36,304 bases of DNA from a virus. Taxonomy: Duplodnaviria; Heunggongvirae; Uroviricota; Caudoviricetes. Numbering within the stretch: position 1 is the first letter of the stretch; the number at the start of each line of letters is the position of its first letter. Location of the stretch: IMG/VR virus record IMGVR_UViG_2512047041_000001. One strand, 5' to 3'. Made by a program: the position numbers and the translations under genes. Under the pieces are notes generated by a model. That model was not told the DNA's origin. It did not search any database and worked only from the letters and a program-made list of their open reading frames with translations. This document shows positions 1 through 36,047 of this stretch, one piece after another.

Positions 1-327
1 ATGACTAAAAATACTCGTTTTTCCCCCGAAGTCCGTCAACGGGCAGTCCGTATGGTTCTGGAAAGTCAGGGCGAATATGACTCACAATGGGCGACAATTT
101 GTTCCATTGCTCCAAAGATTGGCTGTACGCCGGAGACTCTGCGTGTCTGGGTTCGCCAGCATGAGCGGGATACCGGGGGCGGTGATGGAGGGCTCACCAC
201 CGCTGAACGTCAGCGTCTGAAAGAGCTGGAACGTGAAAATCGTGAACTGCGCCGCAGTAACGATATCCTTCGCCAGGCTTCCGCTTATTTTGCGAAGGCG
301 GAGTTCGACCGCCTCTGGAAAAAATGA
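1..327 (+). CDS. IS3-family transposase OrfA (HTH DNA-binding subunit)
   Basis: 108 aa; helix-turn-helix plus leucine-zipper-like C-terminus ([27 protein letters not shown]) typical of IS3-family OrfA. Confidence 0.85.
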
Positions 328-1214
328 TGCCACTGCTGGATAAGCTGCGTGAGCAGTACGGGGTCGGACCGCTATGCAGCGAACTGCATATTGCCCCGTC
401 AACGTATTACCACTGTCAGCAACAGCGACATCATCCGGATAAACGCAGTGCCCGTGCGCAGCGCGATGACTGGCTGAAGAAAGAGATACAGCGCGTATAC
501 GATGAAAATCACAAGGTATACGGTGTGCGTAAAGTCTGGCGTCAGTTGTTACGGGAAGGTATCAGAGTGGCCAGATGCACTGTGGCACGTCTCATGGCGG
601 TTATGGGACTTGCCGGTGTTCTCCGGGGTAAAAAGGTCCGTACGACCATCAGCCGGAAAGCCGTTGCCGCAGGCGACCGCGTAAACCGTCAGTTCGTGGC
701 AGAACGACCTGACCAGCTGTGGGTGGCTGATTTTACTTACGTCAGCACATGGCGGGGCTTCGTCTATGTGGCGTTCATCATTGATGTGTTTGCCGGATAC
801 ATCGTGGGGTGGCGGGTCTCATCGTCCATGGAAACGACATTCGTGCTGGATGCACTGGAGCAGGCGTTATGGGCCCGTCGACCGTCCGGCACGGTCCATC
901 ACAGTGATAAAGGTTCTCAGTATGTATCGCTGGCCTACACACAGCGGCTTAAGGAAGCCGGATTACTGGCATCAACAGGAAGTACAGGCGACTCGTATGA
1001 CAACGCGATGGCGGAGAGCATCAATGGTCTTTACAAAGCGGAGGTAATACACCGTAAGAGCTGGAAAAACCGTGCAGAAGTGGAACTGGCCACACTCACG
1101 TGGGTGGACTGGTATAACAATCGACGATTGCTGGAAAGGCTGGGCCATACTCCTCCGGCAGAAGCAGAAAAAGCTTATTATGCTTCCATCGGAAACGATG
1201 ATCTGGCAGCCTGA
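324..1214 (+). CDS. IS3-family transposase OrfB (DDE integrase-like catalytic domain)
   Basis: 296 aa; DDE/rve-type motifs (WVADFTYV ... HSDKGSQY ... [15 protein letters not shown]); start overlaps the orfA stop at the A-run frameshift window. Confidence 0.85.
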
Positions 1215-1256
1215 GTTCACAGATAAAACACTCTCCAGGAAACCCGGGGCGGTTCA

Positions 1257-1520
1257 TTGAAAACTTTGAAGAGTAAAGGTGTAAATTCACTCAGTGATTT
1301 TTATGCTATTGACTTAACCAGTAAAAATGGACGAGAGTTATGCCGTACACTTGCCTATAAAACATTCGAAAAAATCATAATTAATACGGATAATAAAACC
1401 TGTGATATCTATTTTATGAATGGCATTGTTTTTAAACACTATCCTTTAATGAAAGTAATATCCGCCCAGCAGGCGATAAGTGCTCTCAAATATATGGTTG
1501 ATGGTGAGATTTATTTCTAA
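1257..1520 (+). CDS. Hypothetical orphan ORF in an AT-rich region directly after the IS end (TTG start; may be the 3' remnant of a gene disrupted by the IS)
   Basis: Only an open frame of 87 codons; no recognisable family; strongly AT-rich context. Confidence 0.2.
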   Translation: MKTLKSKGVNSLSDFYAIDLTSKNGRELCRTLAYKTFEKIIINTDNKTCDIYFMNGIVFKHYPLMKVISAQQAISALKYMVDGEIYF

Positions 1521-1984
1521 ATAATGATCTCGGATTTTAAGTTATGCTATGGTGATAAAGTGCAAGACAGAATTAATTATCTTTGACGAAACTTAATGGG
1601 TAATTACTTTGTTTGCTCCCACAAGCGAGTTTTGTACGGCTGTATTGGGGTAGTAAATGAGCTATACAATCTTAATCATTTGTTAGGTGAGAACTCTTGG
1701 TCGCAGATTCAAATACTGAAAATACGTGACAAATTATTATGAGCAAAATGGTGTATGTCACGTATTTTGAATGATAGGTTAAAAAATAACACCGACTTTC
1801 GTAGGTATTACTAATAATAAAGCAGAGTTTTTAGATAGTATCAATGTGCTTTGTGTATATTGTGGCAAATAATTGGGTTGGGGGTACAATTGTGATTGCT
1901 TTTGCATAAAAATTGCGCCTTTATGCATAATGAGATAAAGGAATATCAAATAAAATAACGATAGGTCATAACAAAGAGGTTTTT

Positions 1985-2536
1985 ATGAAAACACTTATCG
2001 TTTCAACTGTATTGGCATTCATAACATTTTCTGCGCAGGCTGCAGCATTTCAGGTCACTAGTAATGAAATAAAAACAGGAGAGCAACTTACAACGTCTCA
2101 TGTCTTTTCTGGATTTGGGTGTGAAGGTGGTAATACATCGCCCTCATTAACCTGGTCTGGTGTTCCTGAAGGTACCAAAAGCTTTGCCGTAACTGTATAT
2201 GATCCAGATGCACTTACAGGCAGTGGTTGGTGGCATTGGACTGTTGTTAATATTCCAGCAACAATAACATATTTGCCCGTTGATGCAGGGAGACGTGATG
2301 GAACAAAACTGCCGACTGGTGCTGTTCAAGGCCGAAATGATTTTGGCTATGCTGGGTTTGGTGGCGCATGTCCTCCTAAAGGAGATAAACCACATCATTA
2401 CCAGTTTAAAGTATGGGCTCTAAAAACTGAAAAGATTCCTGTAGATTCTAACTCCAGCGGAGCGTTAGTTGGTTATATGCTTAATGCTAATAAAATCGCA
2501 ACCGCTGAGATAACACCAGTTTATGAGATAAAGTAG
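1985..2536 (+). CDS. ybcL: Secreted PEBP/Raf-kinase-inhibitor-like protein (YbcL-like, DLP12-type moron)
   Basis: 183 aa with N-terminal signal peptide (MKTLIVSTVLAFITFSAQA); matches the remembered YbcL/PEBP family; RBS AAAGAGG upstream. Confidence 0.8.
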   Translation: MKTLIVSTVLAFITFSAQAAAFQVTSNEIKTGEQLTTSHVFSGFGCEGGNTSPSLTWSGVPEGTKSFAVTVYDPDALTGSGWWHWTVVNIPATITYLPVDAGRRDGTKLPTGAVQGRNDFGYAGFGGACPPKGDKPHHYQFKVWALKTEKIPVDSNSSGALVGYMLNANKIATAEITPVYEIK

Positions 2537-2545
2537 GGTGAGAGT

Positions 2546-3343
2546 ATGCTGGCAAGAGGTAAGACTAACTTAAAGATCGAAGAAATACGGATGCATAAAC
2601 ATCATGAGATTCATAGGGTTAAGCCTCTTATGCCAGCTTTGTGTCGTATCCGTCAGGGAAAGAAAGTTATCAATTGGGAGACGCATACTTTAACTGTTGA
2701 TAATAATCAAATAATATTATTTCCTTGTGGTTATGAATTTTATATTGAGAATTATCCTGAAGCAGGGCTTTATCTTGCAGAAATGCTTTACTTACCCATT
2801 GATTTAATTGAGAGTTTCCAAAAACTTTATACGGTAACTGATCAAATACGTAACAAAACAAGTTTCTTTTTACCTCAGAATCCTGAGTTAATATATTGTT
2901 GGGAGCAACTAAAAACATCTGTTTCCCGAGGCTTCTCAACTAAAATTCAGGAGCACTTAGCAATGGGCGTTCTACTTTCGTTAGGAGTGAATCATGTTAA
3001 TCATTTACTTTTATCATATAGTAAACAATCATTGATAAGTCGTTGTTATAACCTGCTGCTATCCGAACCCGGCACAAAATGGACAGCAAACAAGGTTGCT
3101 CGATATCTCTACATTTCTGTTTCTACATTACATCGCCGTCTAGCAAGCGAGGGGGTAAGTTTCCAAAGTATACTGGACGATGTGAGGTTAAATAATGCGT
3201 TGTCTGCTATACAAACGACGGTAAAACCTATAAGCGAGATTGCCAGAGAAAATGGTTATAAGTGTCCTTCTCGTTTTACTGAAAGATTTCATAATCGTTT
3301 TAATATAACACCAAGAGAGATAAGAAAAGCTTCCAGAGAGTAA
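2546..3343 (+). CDS. ybcM: AraC/XylS-family transcriptional regulator (YbcM-like)
   Basis: 265 aa; C-terminal AraC-type HTH region ([18 protein letters not shown] ... [26 protein letters not shown]); AT-rich gene. Confidence 0.8.
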
Positions 3344-3408
3344 AAGTGTTTTAAGAAGGAGCAATTCTATCGATTTTGATTTTGGGAAATCAACACGGCA
3401 TAATTATG

Positions 3409-3435
3409 TCACCGGAGCCTGAACAACTCCGGTGA
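3409..3435 (+). other. Perfect 9-bp inverted repeat (TCACCGGAG ... CTCCGGTGA) downstream of ybcM; possible terminator or regulatory hairpin without a T-tract
   Basis: Inverted repeat read directly in the sequence. Confidence 0.3.
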
Positions 3436-3459
3436 CTTCTGCGCTAAACGGGGACGTTT

Positions 3460-3561
3460 ATGCGCACATACAATCCAAACTCTCTTCTCCCTTCACAGAT
3501 GCAGAAATGCACCTGCAATTCTTTGCATCTAGCGTTTGACCTCTGCGGAGGTGAAGCGTGA
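3460..3561 (+). CDS. ylcH: Small protein YlcH-like (33 aa), not in the supplied ORF track
   Basis: Translation [33 protein letters not shown]; position between ybcM and ybcN as in DLP12; stop overlaps the ybcN GTG start. Confidence 0.45.
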
Positions 3562-4013
3562 ACCTCTCACAAGACGGCATCAAATTACATCGCGGCAACT
3601 TCACCGCTATCGGTCGGCAGATCCAGCCTTATCTGGAGGAGGGCAAATGCTTTCGCATGGTGCTTAAACCGTGGCGTGAGAAACGCAGTCTTTCCCAGAA
3701 TGCACTCAGCCACATGTGGTACAGCGAAATCAGTGAATACCTCATCAGCAGGGGTAAAACGTTCGCCACTCCAGCTTGGGTAAAAGATGCTCTCAAACAC
3801 ACATATCTCGGTTATGAAACCAAAGACCTGGTTGATGTCGTAACCGGTGATATTACCACTATCCAGTCGTTACGCCATACCTCCGATCTTGATACCGGAG
3901 AGATGTATGTCTTCCTGTGTAAGGTTGAAGCCTGGGCGGTGAATATTGGCTGCCACCTGACTATTCCGCAGAGCTGCGAGTTCCAGCTGCTCCGCGACAA
4001 GCAGGAGGCGTAA
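3558..4013 (+). CDS. ybcN: NinB/Orf-family recombination protein (YbcN-like)
   Basis: 151 aa matching remembered YbcN/NinB; GTG start; stop overlaps the ninE start (TAATG). Confidence 0.85.
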
Positions 4014-4183
4014 TGGCTACACCGCTTATTCGTGTCATGAACGGACACATCTACAGAGTATCAAATCGTCGTAAGCGTAAGCCTGAGCTGAAGCCATCCG
4101 AAATACCAACACTGCTCGGATATACCGCTAGCCTGGTTGATAAAAAATGGTTGCGACTGGCAGCAAGGAGGAATCATGGCTGA
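4013..4183 (+). CDS. ninE: NinE-like small protein (56 aa), not in the supplied ORF track
   Basis: Translation [56 protein letters not shown], basic C-terminus as in lambda NinE; nin-region position. Confidence 0.6.
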   Translation: MATPLIRVMNGHIYRVSNRRKRKPELKPSEIPTLLGYTASLVDKKWLRLAARRNHG

Positions 4184-4466
4184 TTTGAGAAAAGCAGCGC
4201 GTGGTCGGGAATGCCAGGTAAGAATCCCTGGCGTATGTAATGGCAATTCTGAAACGTCTGTACTGGCACATATCCGGCTGGCTGGATTGTGCGGTACCGG
4301 TATCAAACCGCCAGACCTGATTGCCACCATTGCATGTTCTGCCTGCCACGACGAAATCGACCGCCGCACACATTTTGTCGATGCTGCATATGCAAAAGAA
4401 TGCGCGCTGGAAGGTATGGCGAGAACACAGGTTATCTGGCTGAAAGAGGGGGTTATTAAGGCGTGA
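4177..4466 (+). CDS. ybcO: YbcO-like protein (DUF1364, putative nuclease, Cys-rich)
   Basis: Start taken at MADLRK with RBS AGGAGG upstream; Cys-rich motif CNGNSET ... CSACHDEID; matches remembered DLP12 YbcO. Confidence 0.75.
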
Positions 4467-4825
4467 ATACCTACAGTATCACATTACCCTGGCCTCCGAG
4501 CAATAATCGCTATTACCGCCATAATCGCGGGCGCACGCACGTCAGTGCAGAGGGGCAGGCATACCGCGATAACGTCGCCCGAATCATTAAAAACGCAATG
4601 CTGGATATCGGCCTGGCTATGCCTGTGAAAATCCGCATTGAGTGCCACATGCCGGATCGCCGTAGCCGTGACCTGGATAATCTGCAAAAAGCCGCTTTTG
4701 ACGCACTCACTAAAGCAGGTTTCTGGCTGGATGATGCTCAGGTCGTTGATTACCGCGTTGTGAAGATGCCTGTTACCAAAGGTGGGAGGCTGGAACTGAC
4801 CATCACCGAAATGGGGAATGAATGA
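4463..4825 (+). CDS. rusA: RusA Holliday-junction resolvase
   Basis: 120 aa matching remembered RusA ([18 protein letters not shown] ...); translationally coupled to ybcO. Confidence 0.9.
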
Positions 4826-4962
4826 TGTTTGAGTTTAATATGGCAGAACTTCTTCGCCACCGCTGGGGGCGTCTGCGCTTATATCGTTTCCCCGGCTCTG
4901 TTTTGACCGATTACCGAATACTGAAGAATTACGCCAAAACACTGACAGGAGCAGGAGTATGA
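4822..4962 (+). CDS. ylcG: YlcG-like small protein (46 aa), not in the supplied ORF track
   Basis: Translation [46 protein letters not shown]; start overlaps the rusA stop. Confidence 0.6.
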
Positions 4963-5047
4963 AGTCAGAGATAACAATCAACTAATACTGTTTTGTTGAT
5001 TTTTGCTTGTAATTGGCGTTCTGGTCTGAGTTTTGTGGAGTAAGTTG

Positions 5048-5425
5048 ATGCGTGATATTCAGATGGTTCTTGAGCGTTGGGGAGCGTGGGCGGCTAATAA
5101 TCATGAAGATGTGACCTGGTCGTCCATTGCCGCCGGTTTTAAGGGATTAATTCCTTCAAAAGTAAAATCTCGCCCGCAATGTTGTGACGATGACGCGATG
5201 ATCATTTGCGGGTGCATGGCCCGTCTGAAAAAGAACAACAGCGATTTGCATGATTTATTGGTGGACTATTATGTCGGCGGCATGACTTTTATGGCGCTTG
5301 CACGTAAGCATGGGCGATCTGATTGTTGGGTTGGCAGGATGCTCCAGAAAGCTGAGGGCGTAGTGGAGGGTATGCTGATGGTGTTGGATCTCCGATTGGA
5401 GATGGATGGTGATTGTTCGAAATAA
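5048..5425 (+). CDS. quuD: Late-gene antiterminator Q (phage 82/DLP12 QuuD type)
   Basis: Matches remembered QuuD from [24 protein letters not shown]; Cys-rich zinc-binding region [12 protein letters not shown]. Confidence 0.8.
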
Positions 5426-5524
5426 TTAAAGGAAAAGTTGCTGTCTGATTCTCATTAGTCTAACATTTTAAATGTTGGAATCGCAACGTAGTTATTATCA
5501 TATAACAGCTTGTTTCCTGATTTA

Positions 5525-5553
5525 GCCAGCCTCCCCAAAGGCTGGTTTTTTTC
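5525..5553 (+). terminator. Rho-independent terminator (tR'-like) downstream of Q: GC hairpin CCAGCC-loop-GGCTGG followed by T7
   Basis: Hairpin plus T-tract read directly; position downstream of Q where pR' and tR' lie in lambdoid phages. Confidence 0.45.
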
Positions 5554-5580
5554 TAATAAGTATTATTTCGGGTAGGGATT

Positions 5581-6105
5581 TTATTGTTTAACCCATAATA
5601 ATTCATTGACATTGAATCCCAACTTTTGAGCGGTTCGCACATAGTCTGCTTTTACTTTATCTGGAATAGTTGGGGTCCTTGCCAGAATCCATAGGTATTC
5701 TCTGTTCGGACCACTGACAAGAGCATACTTATACTCATCATCCAGTTTGATTACATTATAGCCACCATAGAAGGGGCCAAAAAACGAAACCTTCAACGCT
5801 GCAGTTTTAGTATCTCCAGTAAAGTATGCTTTACCTTCGCTCTCGCTCCATTTATTTTTCGTTGGATCGTATCCACGGTTAAGTACACGAATCCCTCCGT
5901 CGTTCCGTTTTCCATAGGTAGCGCTGACCTGTTCCAGACCACGTTCGAACCGGTTCTCGAGGCGAGCTATTTCATACCATTTTCCGAGGTAGCGGTTGGC
6001 GTCAAAATTTGTAATCGGCTGCACACCTTTAGGTGGTGTCGGGGCCTTACATGCTATAAGAGTGAAAGAGAGTGCAATGCCAGTCAACACAGGCCATAAC
6101 TTCAT
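5581..6105 (-). CDS. Outer-membrane lipocalin lipoprotein, Blc paralogue
   Basis: 174 aa; lipoprotein signal with lipobox LIAC; lipocalin motifs (GKWYEIARLENRFERG, FFGPFYGGYNVI) closely resembling remembered E. coli Blc. Confidence 0.8.
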   Translation of the reverse strand: MKLWPVLTGIALSFTLIACKAPTPPKGVQPITNFDANRYLGKWYEIARLENRFERGLEQVSATYGKRNDGGIRVLNRGYDPTKNKWSESEGKAYFTGDTKTAALKVSFFGPFYGGYNVIKLDDEYKYALVSGPNREYLWILARTPTIPDKVKADYVRTAQKLGFNVNELLWVKQ

Positions 6106-6297
6106 AATAAATCCTGTACTTTTGATAGTTGAGAGTAAGTATGAAAGATAGATGATTACGACCGATCACTTAAAGAACTTTCATACTATATTAGGAATAG
6201 TCTATAACAGAAAAATTGTCAGTGATGACGCCAGAAAGGCAATTTATTCCGTGCACTACACAGTTTATGTGTTAATGAATTAGTCAAGGGGGAGAAT

Positions 6298-7257
6298 ATG
6301 ATAAAAAAACCTGTGATTGGAATCAGCGGTTGTTTGGCCGGCTCTGCTGTTCGTTTTGATGGTGGTCACAAAAGAGCTGACTTTTTAATGGACAAATTAG
6401 TGGAATGGGTAACATTCAGACCAGTATGTCCGGAAATGGCTATAGGGCTGCCAGTTCCGCGTCCTGCTCTACGTCTTGTGCGCTCGACGCAAGGAAATAT
6501 ACGGATGTGTTTCAGCCACGACCAGAATGAGGATGTGACAGAGAGAATGACAGAGTTTAGTCGTTCTTATATGGACAAATTAAAGGATGTATCGGGGTTT
6601 GTGGTTTGTGCTAAATCTCCCAGCTGTGGCATGGAGCGCGTGCGTGTCTATGATGAAAATGGTAATCGAGGTCGTAAAGATGGAGTGGGACTATTTACGA
6701 GCACTTTGATGGAAAAGTTTTCTTGGCTACCGGTTGAAGAGGATGGGCGATTACATGATCCAGTGCTTCGTGAGAATTTTGTTGAAAGAGTTTTTGCTTT
6801 GCATGAGCTCAATCACCTTTACAAGGAGAAATTATCAAGAAGAGAGTTATTAGCTTTTCATAGTCGTTATAAGCTTCAGTTGTTGGCGCATAGTCAGGCA
6901 GGCTATAAAGATATGGGACCATTTGTGGCTGCAATACACGAGTGGGCGGACCTTGAATCATACTTTGAGGTGTATCGTGATAAGCTGATGGCGATTCTCA
7001 GAAAACCTGCATCACGTAAAAATCACACGAATGTGCTGATGCATATACAGGGGTATTTTAGTAACTACTTAAGTACACGCCAGCGTAAAGAGTTGAGCGA
7101 GGTTATACTTAACTATCGTTCTGGCACATTACCTCTTCTTGCGCCGTTGACTCTGCTGAAGCATTATCTGGGTGAGTATCCTAATGATTACTTGCTTACA
7201 CAGAATTACTTCGATCCCTATCCGGACGAACTGGCTCTAAGACTGATGGTAAATTAA
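6298..7257 (+). CDS. DUF523 (TudS-like [4Fe-4S] desulfidase domain) fused to DUF1722 (YbgA-like); RudS-like putative tRNA 4-thiouridine desulfidase
   Basis: 319 aa; N-terminal Cys pattern (GISGCLAG, PVCPEM, KSPSCGME) consistent with the three-Cys TudS cluster site; C-terminal half resembles YbgA/DUF1722; assignment from memory, not searched. Confidence 0.55.
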   Translation: MIKKPVIGISGCLAGSAVRFDGGHKRADFLMDKLVEWVTFRPVCPEMAIGLPVPRPALRLVRSTQGNIRMCFSHDQNEDVTERMTEFSRSYMDKLKDVSGFVVCAKSPSCGMERVRVYDENGNRGRKDGVGLFTSTLMEKFSWLPVEEDGRLHDPVLRENFVERVFALHELNHLYKEKLSRRELLAFHSRYKLQLLAHSQAGYKDMGPFVAAIHEWADLESYFEVYRDKLMAILRKPASRKNHTNVLMHIQGYFSNYLSTRQRKELSEVILNYRSGTLPLLAPLTLLKHYLGEYPNDYLLTQNYFDPYPDELALRLMVN

Positions 7258-7599
7258 TTGTATGCGATATCATCCAAAAGGATGAGTTCCTGCATGCAGG
7301 ATATTTACAATCGTAAAAACTACACTATGATACCCAGAGTGTCAGTTTGTATAAAAACTCTGTTTACGCTGAAGAAACCATTGAGATGCAACTTAAAGTT
7401 GGTAAACATGCCAGTCAAAATATATAATATTATGATTCCACGCAGCTATATATAATATAACAGATTGGTTTAATAATTTGTCTTTGTGAGTTAAATACAT
7501 AATTTTATACTTGTGATGCAATGAGATTTTCCTTATTGTTGAACTGGCGAATATTGATTTTCCACCTATACTTACCTGGTGTAACCCCAATGATATCAG

Positions 7600-8340
7600 G
7601 TGGATAATATGCCATACATATGTTCTATCATTTTGGTGTTGAACTCGTTTGATGTCCGAATTGGTAAAGAAGATATTTTGTTTAAAAAAGGAAGTGCTGT
7701 TCTCATTGATTACAATTTAAAAGATTTTTTTTCATCAAATATAGATCATGTAATGATCGTAGATGTTGAAGAGAAAACAGTTAATGATTTCTTTAAAAGC
7801 AACACACTCTCACCTTTTTCTGTAAGAAGGTTTTATCCGGCATACTTGATGGTGGAATGTGAAGATTTTTCATTGTTAAAGAACTTGATTGCATGCTTGA
7901 ATTGTGATGGCAGAACTGTGGATTTTGTTAGAAATCAAATATCACTTGCATGTCTTGCTATCTTATCTTCAGAGAAAATAGTGCAAAGTTTTTTATTTGG
8001 ATGTCTTAATAGTTTAGGAAGTAAAGTTAAGGCTATTATTCACACGGATATATCTGCAGCATGGAGACTTTGTGATATATCTTCAAGACTGTATCTGAGT
8101 GAAAGTCTGTTAAAAAGAAAATTAAAGCACGAAGGCTTATCATTTAGTAAGTTAATTCTTGAAGAGCGAATGGTGATGGCGGAAAGGTTATTAAGCTACA
8201 ATTTATATTCTGTTGGAAAAGTTGCTGAGATATGCGGTTATGAAAACACGTCATATTTTGTAAGTGTTTTCAGAAGATATTTTGGTGTTCCTCCCCATCA
8301 ATATTCATCAAGACTTTTTTTAGAAAAAGACATGATGTAA
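7600..8340 (+). CDS. AraC/XylS-family transcriptional regulator (AppY/EnvY-like subfamily), AT-rich
   Basis: 246 aa; C-terminal AraC HTH region (VGKVAEICGYENTSYFVSVFRRYFGVPPHQY); about 340 bp AT-rich leader upstream. Confidence 0.7.
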   Translation: MDNMPYICSIILVLNSFDVRIGKEDILFKKGSAVLIDYNLKDFFSSNIDHVMIVDVEEKTVNDFFKSNTLSPFSVRRFYPAYLMVECEDFSLLKNLIACLNCDGRTVDFVRNQISLACLAILSSEKIVQSFLFGCLNSLGSKVKAIIHTDISAAWRLCDISSRLYLSESLLKRKLKHEGLSFSKLILEERMVMAERLLSYNLYSVGKVAEICGYENTSYFVSVFRRYFGVPPHQYSSRLFLEKDMM

Positions 8341-8401
8341 CGTGATGCGTTTTAATGATTTTGTAATTTTCGTATTTGATAATTGTATGATGCTTTCAGC
8401 T

Positions 8402-8433
8402 ACGCCAGAATAATCGCTGGCGTTTTTCTTTTT
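8402..8433 (+). terminator. Rho-independent terminator between the AraC-like gene and the holin (ACGCCAG-loop-CTGGCGT followed by a T-rich tract)
   Basis: Hairpin and T-tract read directly. Confidence 0.5.
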
Positions 8434-8528
8434 GAATAGATGTTCAAGCCTTACGCTAATGTAACTTCTATACCTTTCCTCTTCGTTCCGAACCGTGTAC
8501 ACCATCCGTTATTTGCGGAGGTGAGGCT

Positions 8529-8744
8529 ATGAAATCCATGGATAAGTTAACAACGGGCATTGCCTACGGCACCTCCGCAGGCAGTGCTGGCTACTGGTTT
8601 TTACAGCTGCTCGATAAAGTCACGCCCTCACAGTGGGCAGCAATAGGTGTGCTGGGTAGCTTGGTATTTGGCTTGCTGACGTACCTGACAAACCTTTATT
8701 TCAAGATTAAAGAAGATAAGCGCAAGGCTGCGAGAGGTGAATAA
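8529..8744 (+). CDS. essD: Holin, phage-21 S21 pinholin type (EssD-like)
   Basis: 71 aa, two transmembrane segments and charged C-terminus; matches remembered EssD/S21. Confidence 0.85.
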
Positions 8745-9241
8745 TGCCTCCATCATTACGAAAAGCCGTTGCTGCTGCTATTGGTGGCGGAGCAATTGCT
8801 ATAGCATCAGTGTTAATCACTGGCTCAAGTGGTAACGATGGTCTGGAGGGTGTCAGCTATATACCATACAAAGATATTGTTGGTGTATGGACTGTATGTC
8901 ACGGGCATACAGGAAAAGACATCATGCTCGGTAAAACGTATACCAAAGCAGAATGCAAAGCACTCTTGAATAAAGACCTTGCCACTGTCGCCAGACAAAT
9001 TAACCCGTACATCAAAGTCGATATACCGGAAACAACGCGCGGCGCTCTTTACTCATTCGTTTACAACGTGGGTGCTGGCAATTTCAGAACATCGACGCTT
9101 CTTCGCAAAATAAACCAGGGCGATATCAAAGGCGCATGTGATCAGCTACGTCGCTGGACATATGCTGGCGGTAAGCAATGGAAAGGTCTCATGACTCGTC
9201 GTGAGATTGAGCGTGAAATCTGTTTGTGGGGTCAGCAATGA
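8744..9241 (+). CDS. rrrD: SAR endolysin (lysozyme, RrrD/R21-like)
   Basis: 165 aa; N-terminal signal-anchor-release segment ([20 protein letters not shown]) followed by a lysozyme domain; start overlaps the holin stop. Confidence 0.85.
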
Positions 9242-9699
9242 ACAGAGTAACCGTGATTATCTCCGCTCTGGTTATCTGCATCATCGTCTGCCTGTCATGG
9301 GCTGTTAATCATTACCGTGATAACGCCATTACCTACAAAGCCCAGCGCGACAAAAATGCCAGAGAACTGAAGCTGGCGAACGCGGCAATTACTGACATGC
9401 AGATGCGTCAGCGTGATGTTGCTGCGCTCGATGCAAAATACACGAAGGAGTTAGCTGATGCGAAAGCTGAAAATGATGCTCTGCGTGATGATGTTGCCGC
9501 TGGTCGTCGTCGGTTGCACATCAAAGCAGTCTGTCAGTCAGTGCGTGAAGCCACCACCGCCTCCGGCGTGGATAATGCAGCCTCCCCCCGACTGGCAGAC
9601 ACCGCTGAACGGGATTATTTCACCCTCAGAGAGAGGCTGATCACTATGCAAAAACAACTGGAAGGAACCCAGAAGTATATTAATGAGCAGTGCAGATAG
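9238..9699 (+). CDS. rzpD: Rz i-spanin (inner-membrane spanin)
   Basis: 153 aa from [17 protein letters not shown] with N-terminal transmembrane segment and coiled-coil periplasmic domain; ATGA overlap with the endolysin stop. Confidence 0.85.
9458..9640 (+). CDS. rzoD: Rz1 o-spanin (outer-membrane lipoprotein) embedded in the +1 frame of Rz
   Basis: 60 aa with lipobox (VVVGC) and proline-rich body ([15 protein letters not shown]); fully nested within Rz. Confidence 0.8.
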
Positions 9700-9730
9700 A
9701 GCTGCCCATATCGATGGGCAACTCATGCAA

Positions 9731-10024
9731 TTATTGTGAGCAATACACACGCGCTTCCAGCGGAGTATAAATGCCTAAAGTAATAAAACCGAGAAATCCA
9801 TTTACGAATGTTTGCTGGGTTTCTGTTTTAACAACATTTTCTGCGCCGCCACAAATTTTGGCTGCATCAACAGTTTTCTCCTGTCCAATTCCCGAAACGA
9901 AGAAATGATGGGTGATGGTTTCCTTTGGTGTTACTGCTGTCGGTTTGTTTCCAACAGTAAACGTCTGTTGAGCACATCCTGTAATAAGCATTGCCAGAGC
10001 GGCAGAAAACAACATTTTTTTCAT
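9731..10024 (-). CDS. borD: Bor lipoprotein (serum-resistance/Iss family lysogenic conversion protein)
   Basis: 97 aa from MKKMLFSAALAMLITGCAQQ; lipobox ITGC; matches remembered lambda Bor. Confidence 0.85.
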   Translation of the reverse strand: MKKMLFSAALAMLITGCAQQTFTVGNKPTAVTPKETITHHFFVSGIGQEKTVDAAKICGGAENVVKTETQQTFVNGFLGFITLGIYTPLEARVYCSQ

Positions 10025-10140
10025 CTTATTATCCTGCATTGTTAAAAACGGCAGAATCCTATGTGACAACAATTAAACGATAGTTAAATGGATTGATGAA
10101 AATTAAAACTATATAGGTGGATGCTCAGCCTATTGGAGGA

Positions 10141-17673: not shown

Positions 17674-18030
17674 TCATGGCCCTTCGGGGCCATTGTTTCT
17701 CTGTGGAGGAGTCCATGACGAAAGATGAACTGATTGCCCGTCTCCGCTCGCTGGGTGAACAACTGAACCGTGATATCAGCCTGACGGGGACGAAAGAAGA
17801 ACTGGCGCTCCGTGTGGCAGAGCTGGAAGAAGAGCTTGATGACACGGGCGACACTGCCGGTCAGGAGACCCCTCTCAGCCCGGAAAATGTGCTGACCGGA
17901 CATGAAAATGAGGTTGTATCAGCGCAGCCGGATACCGTGACTGATACGGCTGATCTGGTCACGGTTGTGGCACTGGTGACGCTGCATACTGATGCACTTC
18001 ACGCCACGCGGGATGAGGCTGTTGTAGTGG

Positions 18031-19339
<1,309 letters not shown>

Positions 19340-30825: not shown

Positions 30826-31425
30826 ATGCGTAAATTATGTGCTGTTATTCTGTCCGCAGTAGTCTGGCTGGTTGCCGCTGGTACGCCAGCGAGCGCAGCA
30901 GAGCATCAGTCCACACTAAGCGCCGGGTATCTTCAGACCCATACTGATATGCCAGGCAGTGATGACCTGAAGGGCATTAACGTGAAATACCGTTATGAAT
31001 TTACGGACACGCTGGGGCTGGTGACGTCATTCAGTTATGCCAATGCCAAAGATGAGCAAAAAACGCATTACAGCGATACCCGCTGGCATGAAGATTCCGT
31101 GCGTAACCGCTGGTTCAGCATGATGGCGGGGCCATCTGTACGCGTGAATGAATGGTTCAGTGCTTATGCGATGGCAGGTGTGGCTTACAGCCGTGTTTCG
31201 ACGTTCTCCGGGGATTATCTCCGCGTAACTGACAACAAGGGGAAAACGCACGATGTGCTGACCGGAAGTGATGACGATCGCCACAGCAACACGTCTCTGG
31301 CGTGGGGAGCTGGCGTGCAGTTTAACCCGACCGAATCCGTGGCCATTGATATTGCTTATGAAGGCTCCGGCAGTGGCGACTGGCGCACTGACGGTTTCAT
31401 CGTGGGTGTCGGTTATAAGTTCTGA
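30826..31425 (+). CDS. lom: Lom outer-membrane beta-barrel protein (Ail/Lom/OmpX family)
   Basis: 199 aa with signal peptide and C-terminal aromatic residue (GYKF); matches remembered lambda Lom. Confidence 0.85.
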   Translation: MRKLCAVILSAVVWLVAAGTPASAAEHQSTLSAGYLQTHTDMPGSDDLKGINVKYRYEFTDTLGLVTSFSYANAKDEQKTHYSDTRWHEDSVRNRWFSMMAGPSVRVNEWFSAYAMAGVAYSRVSTFSGDYLRVTDNKGKTHDVLTGSDDDRHSNTSLAWGAGVQFNPTESVAIDIAYEGSGSGDWRTDGFIVGVGYKF

Positions 31426-35378: not shown

Positions 35379-36047
35379 CTATTTTTTCCCTGAAGCGGAA
35401 AACATTACTACAGTACCTTGAACCTTGGTTTTAACATTCTCGAAATGCTCTGAGAGTATATGTGTTAAGCCTTCTTCGGAATCTTTTGTGTTTGAAAAGA
35501 TGCCTTTCTGATTGTAAATGCGCATCAGTTTTTGACCGAAGCTATTGTGCACAACTCCATCGCCAAGAATTGTGGCTCCGTATAGAGTTCCATCGTCAGT
35601 TAAGGCCTGCGCCGCATTGCGTATTACACAGCTTTTTGTAGATATATTTCCAGGCAGGCAGTGAAGAAGGTAAAACATGGAAATGGAATCAAATTGACCA
35701 TGTAACGCCGCGGGATAAGGTTCAAAAACATCATGGCTAATTTTATGTTTAATTTTTGATTCCCCAGCCCTTGTAGATGCCGCGTTCAGGCTAGCTTCGT
35801 TCAAATCCATTAAAGATATCAGACTACTCTCAGGTACGTGAGTAAGGTAAAACCCAGTTCCAACACCAATATCCAGATGGTTGTTACCTAAATGTTCCAG
35901 AAAGTGTGGAAGAAGGTGTTCCTTTGTAGGACATCCCCATGCAAGCCGATTTGATACTCCCAAAACCCACCAGTCATAAAGCTTTAGGGTAAGTGGTGTG
36001 TAAATTTTAGCCCCATCATCTGTGTTTTTTTTCATTAATTTCACCAT
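35379..36047 (-). CDS. ybcY: Class I SAM-dependent methyltransferase (YbcY-like), low-GC
   Basis: Motif I LDIGVGTGFY, acidic beta-2 end (LMDLN), motif FDSISMFYLLHCLPG; no DPPY/NPPY DNA-methyltransferase motif; flanked by tfa fragments as remembered for DLP12. Confidence 0.65.
   Translation of the reverse strand: MVKLMKKNTDDGAKIYTPLTLKLYDWWVLGVSNRLAWGCPTKEHLLPHFLEHLGNNHLDIGVGTGFYLTHVPESSLISLMDLNEASLNAASTRAGESKIKHKISHDVFEPYPAALHGQFDSISMFYLLHCLPGNISTKSCVIRNAAQALTDDGTLYGATILGDGVVHNSFGQKLMRIYNQKGIFSNTKDSEEGLTHILSEHFENVKTKVQGTVVMFSASGKK

Follow-up and report, generated by a model that had tools for sequence, protein, structure and literature searches.

A predicted RudS-type tRNA 4-thiouridine desulfidase gene in the Q-to-lysis interval of a DLP12-type prophage

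RudS proteins consist of a TudS domain fused to DUF1722, and six orthologues have been tested experimentally (Jamontas et al. 2024, NAR 52:10543, PMC11417400). When overexpressed in Escherichia coli BL21(DE3), all six reduced the 4-thiouridine (s4U) of tRNA, by 4.7- to 26-fold (PMC11417400). Ten viral RudS sequences were noted in that study and one of them, RudS_vir, was tested, so a phage-borne RudS is not new. Here we describe such a gene, rudS, at positions 6298–7257 on the + strand of the virus record IMGVR_UViG_2512047041_000001, a stretch of 36,304 nt given as one strand, 5' to 3' (the window).

The two domains of RudS also occur separately. TudS (stand-alone DUF523, structure 6z92) has the catalytic domain and the three-cysteine [4Fe-4S] site in common with the rudS product but lacks DUF1722; its substrate is free thiouracil, and it leaves tRNA s4U unchanged (PMC11417400). 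E. coli YbgA (b0707, stand-alone DUF1722) resembles the C-terminal half of the rudS product but lacks the catalytic domain and has no effect on s4U (PMC11417400). In RudS_KT, mutating E51, S111, S113, R60 or the three cysteines abolished activity (Table 2, PMC11417400). The DUF1722 domain of RudS_KT binds the anticodon arm of tRNA, and the residues important for this binding are N202, N203, S243, R244 and T246 (PMC11417400).

The sequence-only reading of the window had proposed a possible RudS-like desulfidase at this position. The open reading frame is real and intact and has exactly the boundaries given in that reading; a strong Shine-Dalgarno sequence, AAGGGGGAG, lies 5' of its ATG. The gene and its two domains are as follows:

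6298–7257, + strand: rudS, an ATG-initiated open reading frame of 319 amino acids; predicted tRNA 4-thiouridine desulfidase with a TudS-type [4Fe-4S] domain and DUF1722.
6316–6744, + strand: N-terminal catalytic domain of the rudS product, residues 7–149, with Cys12, Cys44, Cys110, Glu46, Arg55, Ser107 and Ser109.
6871–7224, + strand: C-terminal DUF1722 domain of the rudS product, residues 192–309 (PF08349).

A profile search for DUF523 and DUF1722, which the sequence-only reading had named beforehand as a check, matched both domains well beyond the chance level, with E about 1e-40. The Pfam profile PF04463 (2-thiouracil desulfurase, formerly DUF523) matches residues 7–149 (E 3.1e-40; 137.9 bits against a cutoff of 34.7), and its positions 1–141 of 141 are covered. 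PF08349 (DUF1722) matches residues 192–309 of the same polypeptide (E 1.9e-40; 138.2 bits against a cutoff of 22.5) over positions 1–117 of 117, a full-length match that bears out the assignment of the C-terminal half to DUF1722. The product also belongs to PHROG 3275 (E 1e-227), and the TudS structure 6z92 matches its N-terminus by sequence (E 2e-4).

The three-cysteine TudS pattern described for the N-terminal domain is likewise present. Among the five cysteines of the rudS product, Cys12 lies in G-C-L, Cys44 in V-C-P-E and Cys110 in S-P-S-C-G, and these positions match those listed for RudS_vir and RudS_ST (Table 1, PMC11417400). Glu46 (in C-P-E), Arg55 (in P-R-P), Ser107 and Ser109 (both in S-P-S-C) are the counterparts of RudS_KT E51, R60, S111 and S113, with the same offsets from the flanking cysteines; this mapping was made by motif and offset, not by alignment with RudS_KT. 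In an alignment with 24 enterobacterial homologues, the three cysteines, Glu46, Arg55, Ser107 and Ser109 are invariant, as is the DUF1722 motif A238-S239-R240-x-N242-x-T244-N245, a plausible counterpart of the tRNA-binding S243 and R244 of RudS_KT.

Megablast of the region identified RudS_vir as gp66 of Escherichia phage 1H12 (H3V29_gp66). RudS_vir and the rudS product are both 319 amino acids long and identical at 298 of 319 positions (93.4%); they share Cys12, Cys44, Cys110 and the catalytic residues, and none of the 21 substitutions falls at a catalytic position. The flanks of the gene are also the same in both genomes, in the order Q, blc, rudS, an AraC-like gene and holin. The AraC-like gene is only 82% identical to that of 1H12, whereas its neighbours are 93–97% identical. 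The genomes themselves differ: 1H12 is a viable phage, whereas the present copy lies in a DLP12-type prophage damaged by insertion sequences (IS). At this level of identity, the gene is best described as an allele of a published, experimentally tested phage protein, and in that sense it is already known. These comparisons support the family assignment in every testable respect, and the RudS-like call, a TudS-type domain fused to DUF1722, has stood.

RefSeq mostly labels the E. coli prophage rudS products ‘YbgA family protein’. We consider this name inadequate. The NCBIfam YbgA model PRK10167 matches residues 160–315 with 190.8 bits, under its cutoff of 237, and the protein has an additional catalytic domain of 150 residues. 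Because the PRK10167 score is below the cutoff, the label undersells and hides the enzyme. In a single E. coli protein record of 403 residues, taken from one contig, the RudS domains are fused to a GGDEF domain (PF00990); this fusion could be an artefact of assembly or annotation.

Based on the tested proteins, a mechanism for the rudS product can be proposed. The TudS-type domain would hold a [4Fe-4S] cluster on Cys12, Cys44 and Cys110, and the sulfur of 4-thiouridine would bind the free fourth iron. Glu46, oriented by Arg55, Ser107 and Ser109, would activate water, and the s4U8 of tRNA would be turned back into uridine. The C-terminal DUF1722 domain would dock the tRNA. Homology to the tested proteins makes the enzyme identity and this mechanism well supported, and the expression pattern of the gene and its benefit to phage or host are inferred.

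The surroundings of rudS, from the antiterminator gene Q to the lysis genes, contain the following features:

5048–5425, + strand: Q antiterminator, Q21 family (PF06530, E 2.5e-51; PDB 6p18, Q21, E 2e-8; RefSeq); the mechanical open reading frame starts at a TTG at 5033.
5524–5547, + strand: GC-rich hairpin and T run between the Q and blc stop codons (-14.9 kcal/mol, z -4.3).
5581–6105, − strand: blc-like gene for an outer-membrane lipocalin lipoprotein (PF08212, E 7e-44; NCBIfam Blc, 316 bits against a cutoff of 267).
7258–7300, + strand: hairpin directly 3' of the rudS stop codon, with no U tract (-19.3 kcal/mol, z -5.05).
7600–8340, + strand: AraC-family (YdeO/GadX-like) regulator gene (PF12833 and PF00165; RefSeq start at 7609; GC 32%).
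8402–8423, + strand: terminator-like hairpin and T run between the AraC-like and holin genes (-12.1 kcal/mol, z -2.5).
5408–8517, no strand assigned: exchangeable module of 3.1 kb (local blastn against the porin-carrying phage ev243).
8529–9699, + strand: lysis cassette, with holin at 8529–8744, endolysin at 8744–9241 and Rz spanin at 9226–9699.

The late-operon position claimed for rudS in the sequence-only reading agrees with this map: the gene is on the + strand between Q (5048–5425) and holin/endolysin/Rz (8529–9699). The blc gene is divergent from rudS across a spacer of 192 bp and is antisense to the presumed late transcript. The hairpin at 5524–5547 occupies the place expected of tR', for which it is a candidate, and is possibly also a shared terminator for blc. 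With blc on one side and the AraC-like gene on the other, rudS forms the centre of a cassette of three accessory genes.

In local blastn, the homology with ev243 ends at 5407 and restarts at 8518, that is, 11 nt before the holin start codon, so the 3.1-kb stretch between these breaks is an exchangeable module. Its GC fraction is low, at 0.32–0.44 (rudS 0.43, AraC-like gene 0.32), against 0.54–0.61 in the structural genes (terminase 0.54). The order Q/blc/rudS/AraC-like/holin is found in twelve deposited phage genomes, including the free phages 1H12 and IdasGreatGrand, and also in DLP12-site prophages and a Qin-type prophage. Other lambdoid phages have an nmpC/ompD porin in the Q-to-holin slot, and in Shiga toxin (Stx) phages the toxin genes occupy the Q-to-S slot. 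The cassette thus has the same place, 3' of Q and 5' of holin, as the Q-to-S accessory genes of lambdoid phages, which are exchanged en bloc, but it brings a lipocalin, a tRNA-modification eraser and a regulator instead of a porin or a toxin.

The best NCBIfam model for the AraC-like protein is YdeO, with 126.8 bits against a cutoff of 348. YdeO, GadX and HilD are its nearest models, all under their curated cutoffs, and it falls in PHROG 1450, a family of unknown function. An Rfam scan found no RNA family in the cassette. PADLOC returned 0 matches for the three cassette proteins, YbcL and YbcM, and nothing here therefore supports a role in defence. The window contains no tRNA genes, and so offers no link to phage tRNAs.

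The window as a whole is a DLP12-type lambdoid prophage, in which an IS3-family element comes first, followed by truncated ybcK, ybcL, ybcM, ybcN, ninE, ybcO, rusA, ylcG and Q. After Q come blc (−), rudS, the AraC-family gene, holin/endolysin/Rz and bor/iss (−), and 3' of bor/iss lie the terminase, the head and tail genes, lom and the tail fibres. Two IS elements are present:

1–1249, + strand: IS3-family element 1, which truncates ybcK (Pfam transposase domains; ALIL frameshift pseudoknot, Rfam).
18023–19280, − strand: IS3-family element 2, in the late-operon DNA-packaging gene FI (Pfam; breakpoints against strain elppa4).

The genomes of AF57 and AR_0013 match positions 1–9800 at 99.9–100%. 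The IS there abuts a truncated integrase beside tRNA-Arg, and the early and immunity region is therefore missing. The intact prophage of elppa4 is 98.3% identical, and its homology with the window starts at 1250; its early arm carries int, exo/bet/gam, a repressor with an S24 peptidase domain, cro and the replication genes O and P.

The two IS3-family elements share no detectable nucleotide similarity, and the junction of the second with FI shows an apparent 3-bp overlap. An Rfam match to isrC, an Hfq-binding small RNA, at 19090–19212 (−; 145 bits) lies over the start of the first transposase reading frame of the second element; since it is inside this element, it is probably IS sequence and not a separate small RNA gene. 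Elsewhere in the prophage, another pair of low-GC genes lies at 1985–3343 (+) in the early-right region: ybcL (PEBP/Raf-kinase-inhibitor-like; GC 0.42) and ybcM, for a second AraC-family regulator (GC 0.36). A Bor/Iss serum-survival lipoprotein is encoded at 9731–10072 (−; PF06291) and a Lom/Ail outer-membrane protein at 30826–31425 (+; PF06316), and a gene resembling class I S-adenosylmethionine-dependent methyltransferases lies at 35379–36047 (−), 3' of the tail-fibre genes.

Outside E. coli the closest homologues of rudS are chromosomal and 66–77% identical, in Citrobacter, Kluyvera, Klebsiella, Enterobacter, Leclercia, Pectobacterium, Serratia and Salmonella; these enterobacterial RudS proteins align over their full length, have the 319-residue architecture too and often have a blc neighbour. 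A Salmonella enterica homologue is 74% identical to the rudS product, and Salmonella ORF319/STM1389 is RudS_ST (LT2), one of the tested orthologues (PMC11417400). The homologue search found nothing between 77% identity and the E. coli/phage cluster (2556 member sequences), and thus no closer donor.

In most such chromosomes a Blc homologue, about 80% identical, is encoded upstream and divergent of rudS. In two Citrobacter genomes (L009 and L054) blc directly adjoins rudS, as in the prophage, while Enterobacter and Leclercia have genes for an MlrA-like MerR regulator and a transthyretin/HIUase-like protein between the two. The phage cassette differs from the Enterobacter locus in lacking both of these genes. 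It also differs from the typical, though not defining, context of RudS, a light-responsive operon that includes a photolyase or a MerR/LitR regulator; here the neighbours are blc and an AraC-like gene in a prophage. Chromosomal rudS genes have a GC fraction of 0.50–0.59, against 0.43 in the prophage. From these comparisons, the cassette looks like a captured enterobacterial blc/rudS neighbourhood minus the MerR regulator, which then drifted to lower GC. When the blc-rudS spacer was aligned with those of the two Citrobacter loci in which blc is adjacent, no conserved operator-like block emerged. The blc-rudS linkage is kept in many enterobacterial chromosomes, which hints at a shared regulon or function.

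Between the prophage and 1H12 alleles, the ratio of nonsynonymous to synonymous substitution rates (dN/dS) is 0.10 for rudS and 0.06 for blc. The value for rudS indicates that purifying selection acts on the gene within the phage lineage.

In lambda and the Q21 family, a single late promoter immediately 3' of Q serves both the lysis and the structural genes. The Q-modified polymerase is terminator-resistant, and sense-strand genes between Q and holin are co-transcribed. In intact relatives of this prophage, the Q-modified RNA polymerase would have to transcribe rudS before it reaches the genes for lysis and structure. Because rudS is on the late strand between Q and holin, its position suggests Q-modified transcription as part of the late operon. 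A promoter of its own may also exist, and it is equally possible that such a promoter works independently in the lysogen.

Taken together, we regard it as highly probable, from homology and gene context, that this open reading frame encodes a functional RudS within a Q-to-lysis accessory cassette. Several observations weigh against parts of this explanation. The prophage in which this copy of rudS sits is defective. The hairpins at 5524–5547 and 8402–8423 flank the cassette, and a third follows rudS. A promoter scan of positions 4800–8800 gave 13 matches against 10.6 expected, which is the chance level, and pR' was not located; we therefore claim no rudS promoter. At the protein level, the AlphaFold2 model of the rudS product, built with 25 close homologues, is poor (predicted local distance difference test score, pLDDT, 58.8). 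Foldseek with this model ranked TudS (6z92/6z96) first (E 1e-2), which is weak support because the pLDDT is only 58.8. Finally, RudS_vir was well expressed, yet showed less activity on tRNA than its abundance would predict, and on 4-thiouracil it had the shortest lag of all RudS proteins (PMC11417400). RudS_vir may therefore differ from other RudS proteins in its substrate preference.

These last two observations would suit a phage enzyme that acts mainly on free thiolated bases or nucleotides, in TudS-like salvage or detoxification, and not on tRNA. However, RudS_vir still lowered tRNA s4U, no RudS equalled TudS on thiouracil, and stand-alone TudS is without effect on tRNA (PMC11417400). The DUF1722 domain is also full length and conserved in the rudS product. 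We consider a mainly free-base role distinctly unlikely. The state of the prophage could instead suggest that rudS is a decaying passenger with no selected function, brought in by illegitimate recombination: the prophage is defective and has two IS insertions, and truncated copies exist, such as the 147-nt remnant that IS3 has left in BL21-AI. Against this stand the dN/dS of 0.10, catalytic residues that are all intact, and full-length copies in about 1060 genomes and in viable phages, and a decaying passenger is in our view very improbable.

A further explanation is compatible with the RudS enzyme identity and differs in when, and for whom, the gene acts. In it, rudS would be a lysogenic-conversion gene, expressed in the resting lysogen from its own promoter and possibly under the adjacent AraC-like regulator; it would lower s4U8 and let the host escape near-UV growth delay, and late read-through would be incidental. 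The module has the hallmarks of an accessory insert, with a GC fraction of 0.32–0.44 and hairpins on both sides and after rudS, and the cassette has its own regulator gene. Even defective prophages that are unable to make phage retain an intact copy of the gene, under purifying selection, and late genes of DLP12 have been reported to be expressed in uninduced cells, under the control of Q, RpoE and Hha (PMC7918800). On the other hand, the 192-bp blc-rudS spacer contains no convincing sigma-70 promoter (best match 9/12, overall at chance level) and is not conserved with the chromosomal loci, and our literature search found no expression data. We take lysogenic conversion to be a serious possibility, somewhat short of an even chance.

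A link between UV, prophage induction and s4U, raised in the sequence-only reading, is speculation. For the LexA box (CTGT-N8-ACAG, at most 1 mismatch) we found 15 matches against 11.7 expected and none 5' of rudS, and therefore no direct SOS control was found. The classical sequence, in which UV induces the prophage and thereby RudS, cannot operate for the present copy because the prophage is defective; it would be possible for intact relatives and free phages. In intact relatives, the SOS response would lead through Q to late expression of RudS, which would strip host tRNA of its photosensitive s4U8. Sunlight that induces the prophage through UVB/UVC would then no longer stall translation via UVA cross-linking of tRNA, and the phage yield would be protected. 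We regard this chain of events as rather unlikely.

E. coli has been said to lack RudS (PMC11417400; likewise a 2026 MMBR review). To the contrary, of 5426 complete E. coli genomes, 1135 contain rudS in part or whole; 1063 of these have at least 80% of the gene, with an intact reading frame, and 991 have at least 80% of the 3.1-kb Q-to-holin interval. The frequency of the gene in E. coli, where it is carried by lambdoid prophages, is not in the literature. In the Qin prophage of BL21-AI (NZ_CP047231.1, 6156–8212), Q and blc are followed by a truncated rudS, which an IS3 element interrupts after its first 147 nt. This remnant fits the view from laboratory strains, and BL21(DE3), the expression host of the RudS study, is a related strain. 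Short contigs of the metagenome-assembled genome ‘Candidatus Nanosynbacter sp.’ D148_maxbin.008 (L055 and L060) also carry the cassette, with 94–100% protein identity, which is almost certainly binning contamination.

By itself, the finding adds no new biology, as the enzyme family and its phage orthologue are published. Our literature search returned only the original RudS study, and found no paper that addresses the biological role of phage-borne RudS. What makes a temperate phage retain, under purifying selection, a tRNA-modification eraser in a slot otherwise used for porins or toxins is a question that the literature has not addressed. Since 1135 of 5426 genomes carry rudS and BL21-AI has only a remnant, s4U-dependent phenotypes may differ between natural isolates and laboratory strains. 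If the broader version of the near-UV idea is true, carriage of the cassette would make near-UV growth delay and the tRNA s4U level strain-variable in about a fifth of E. coli.

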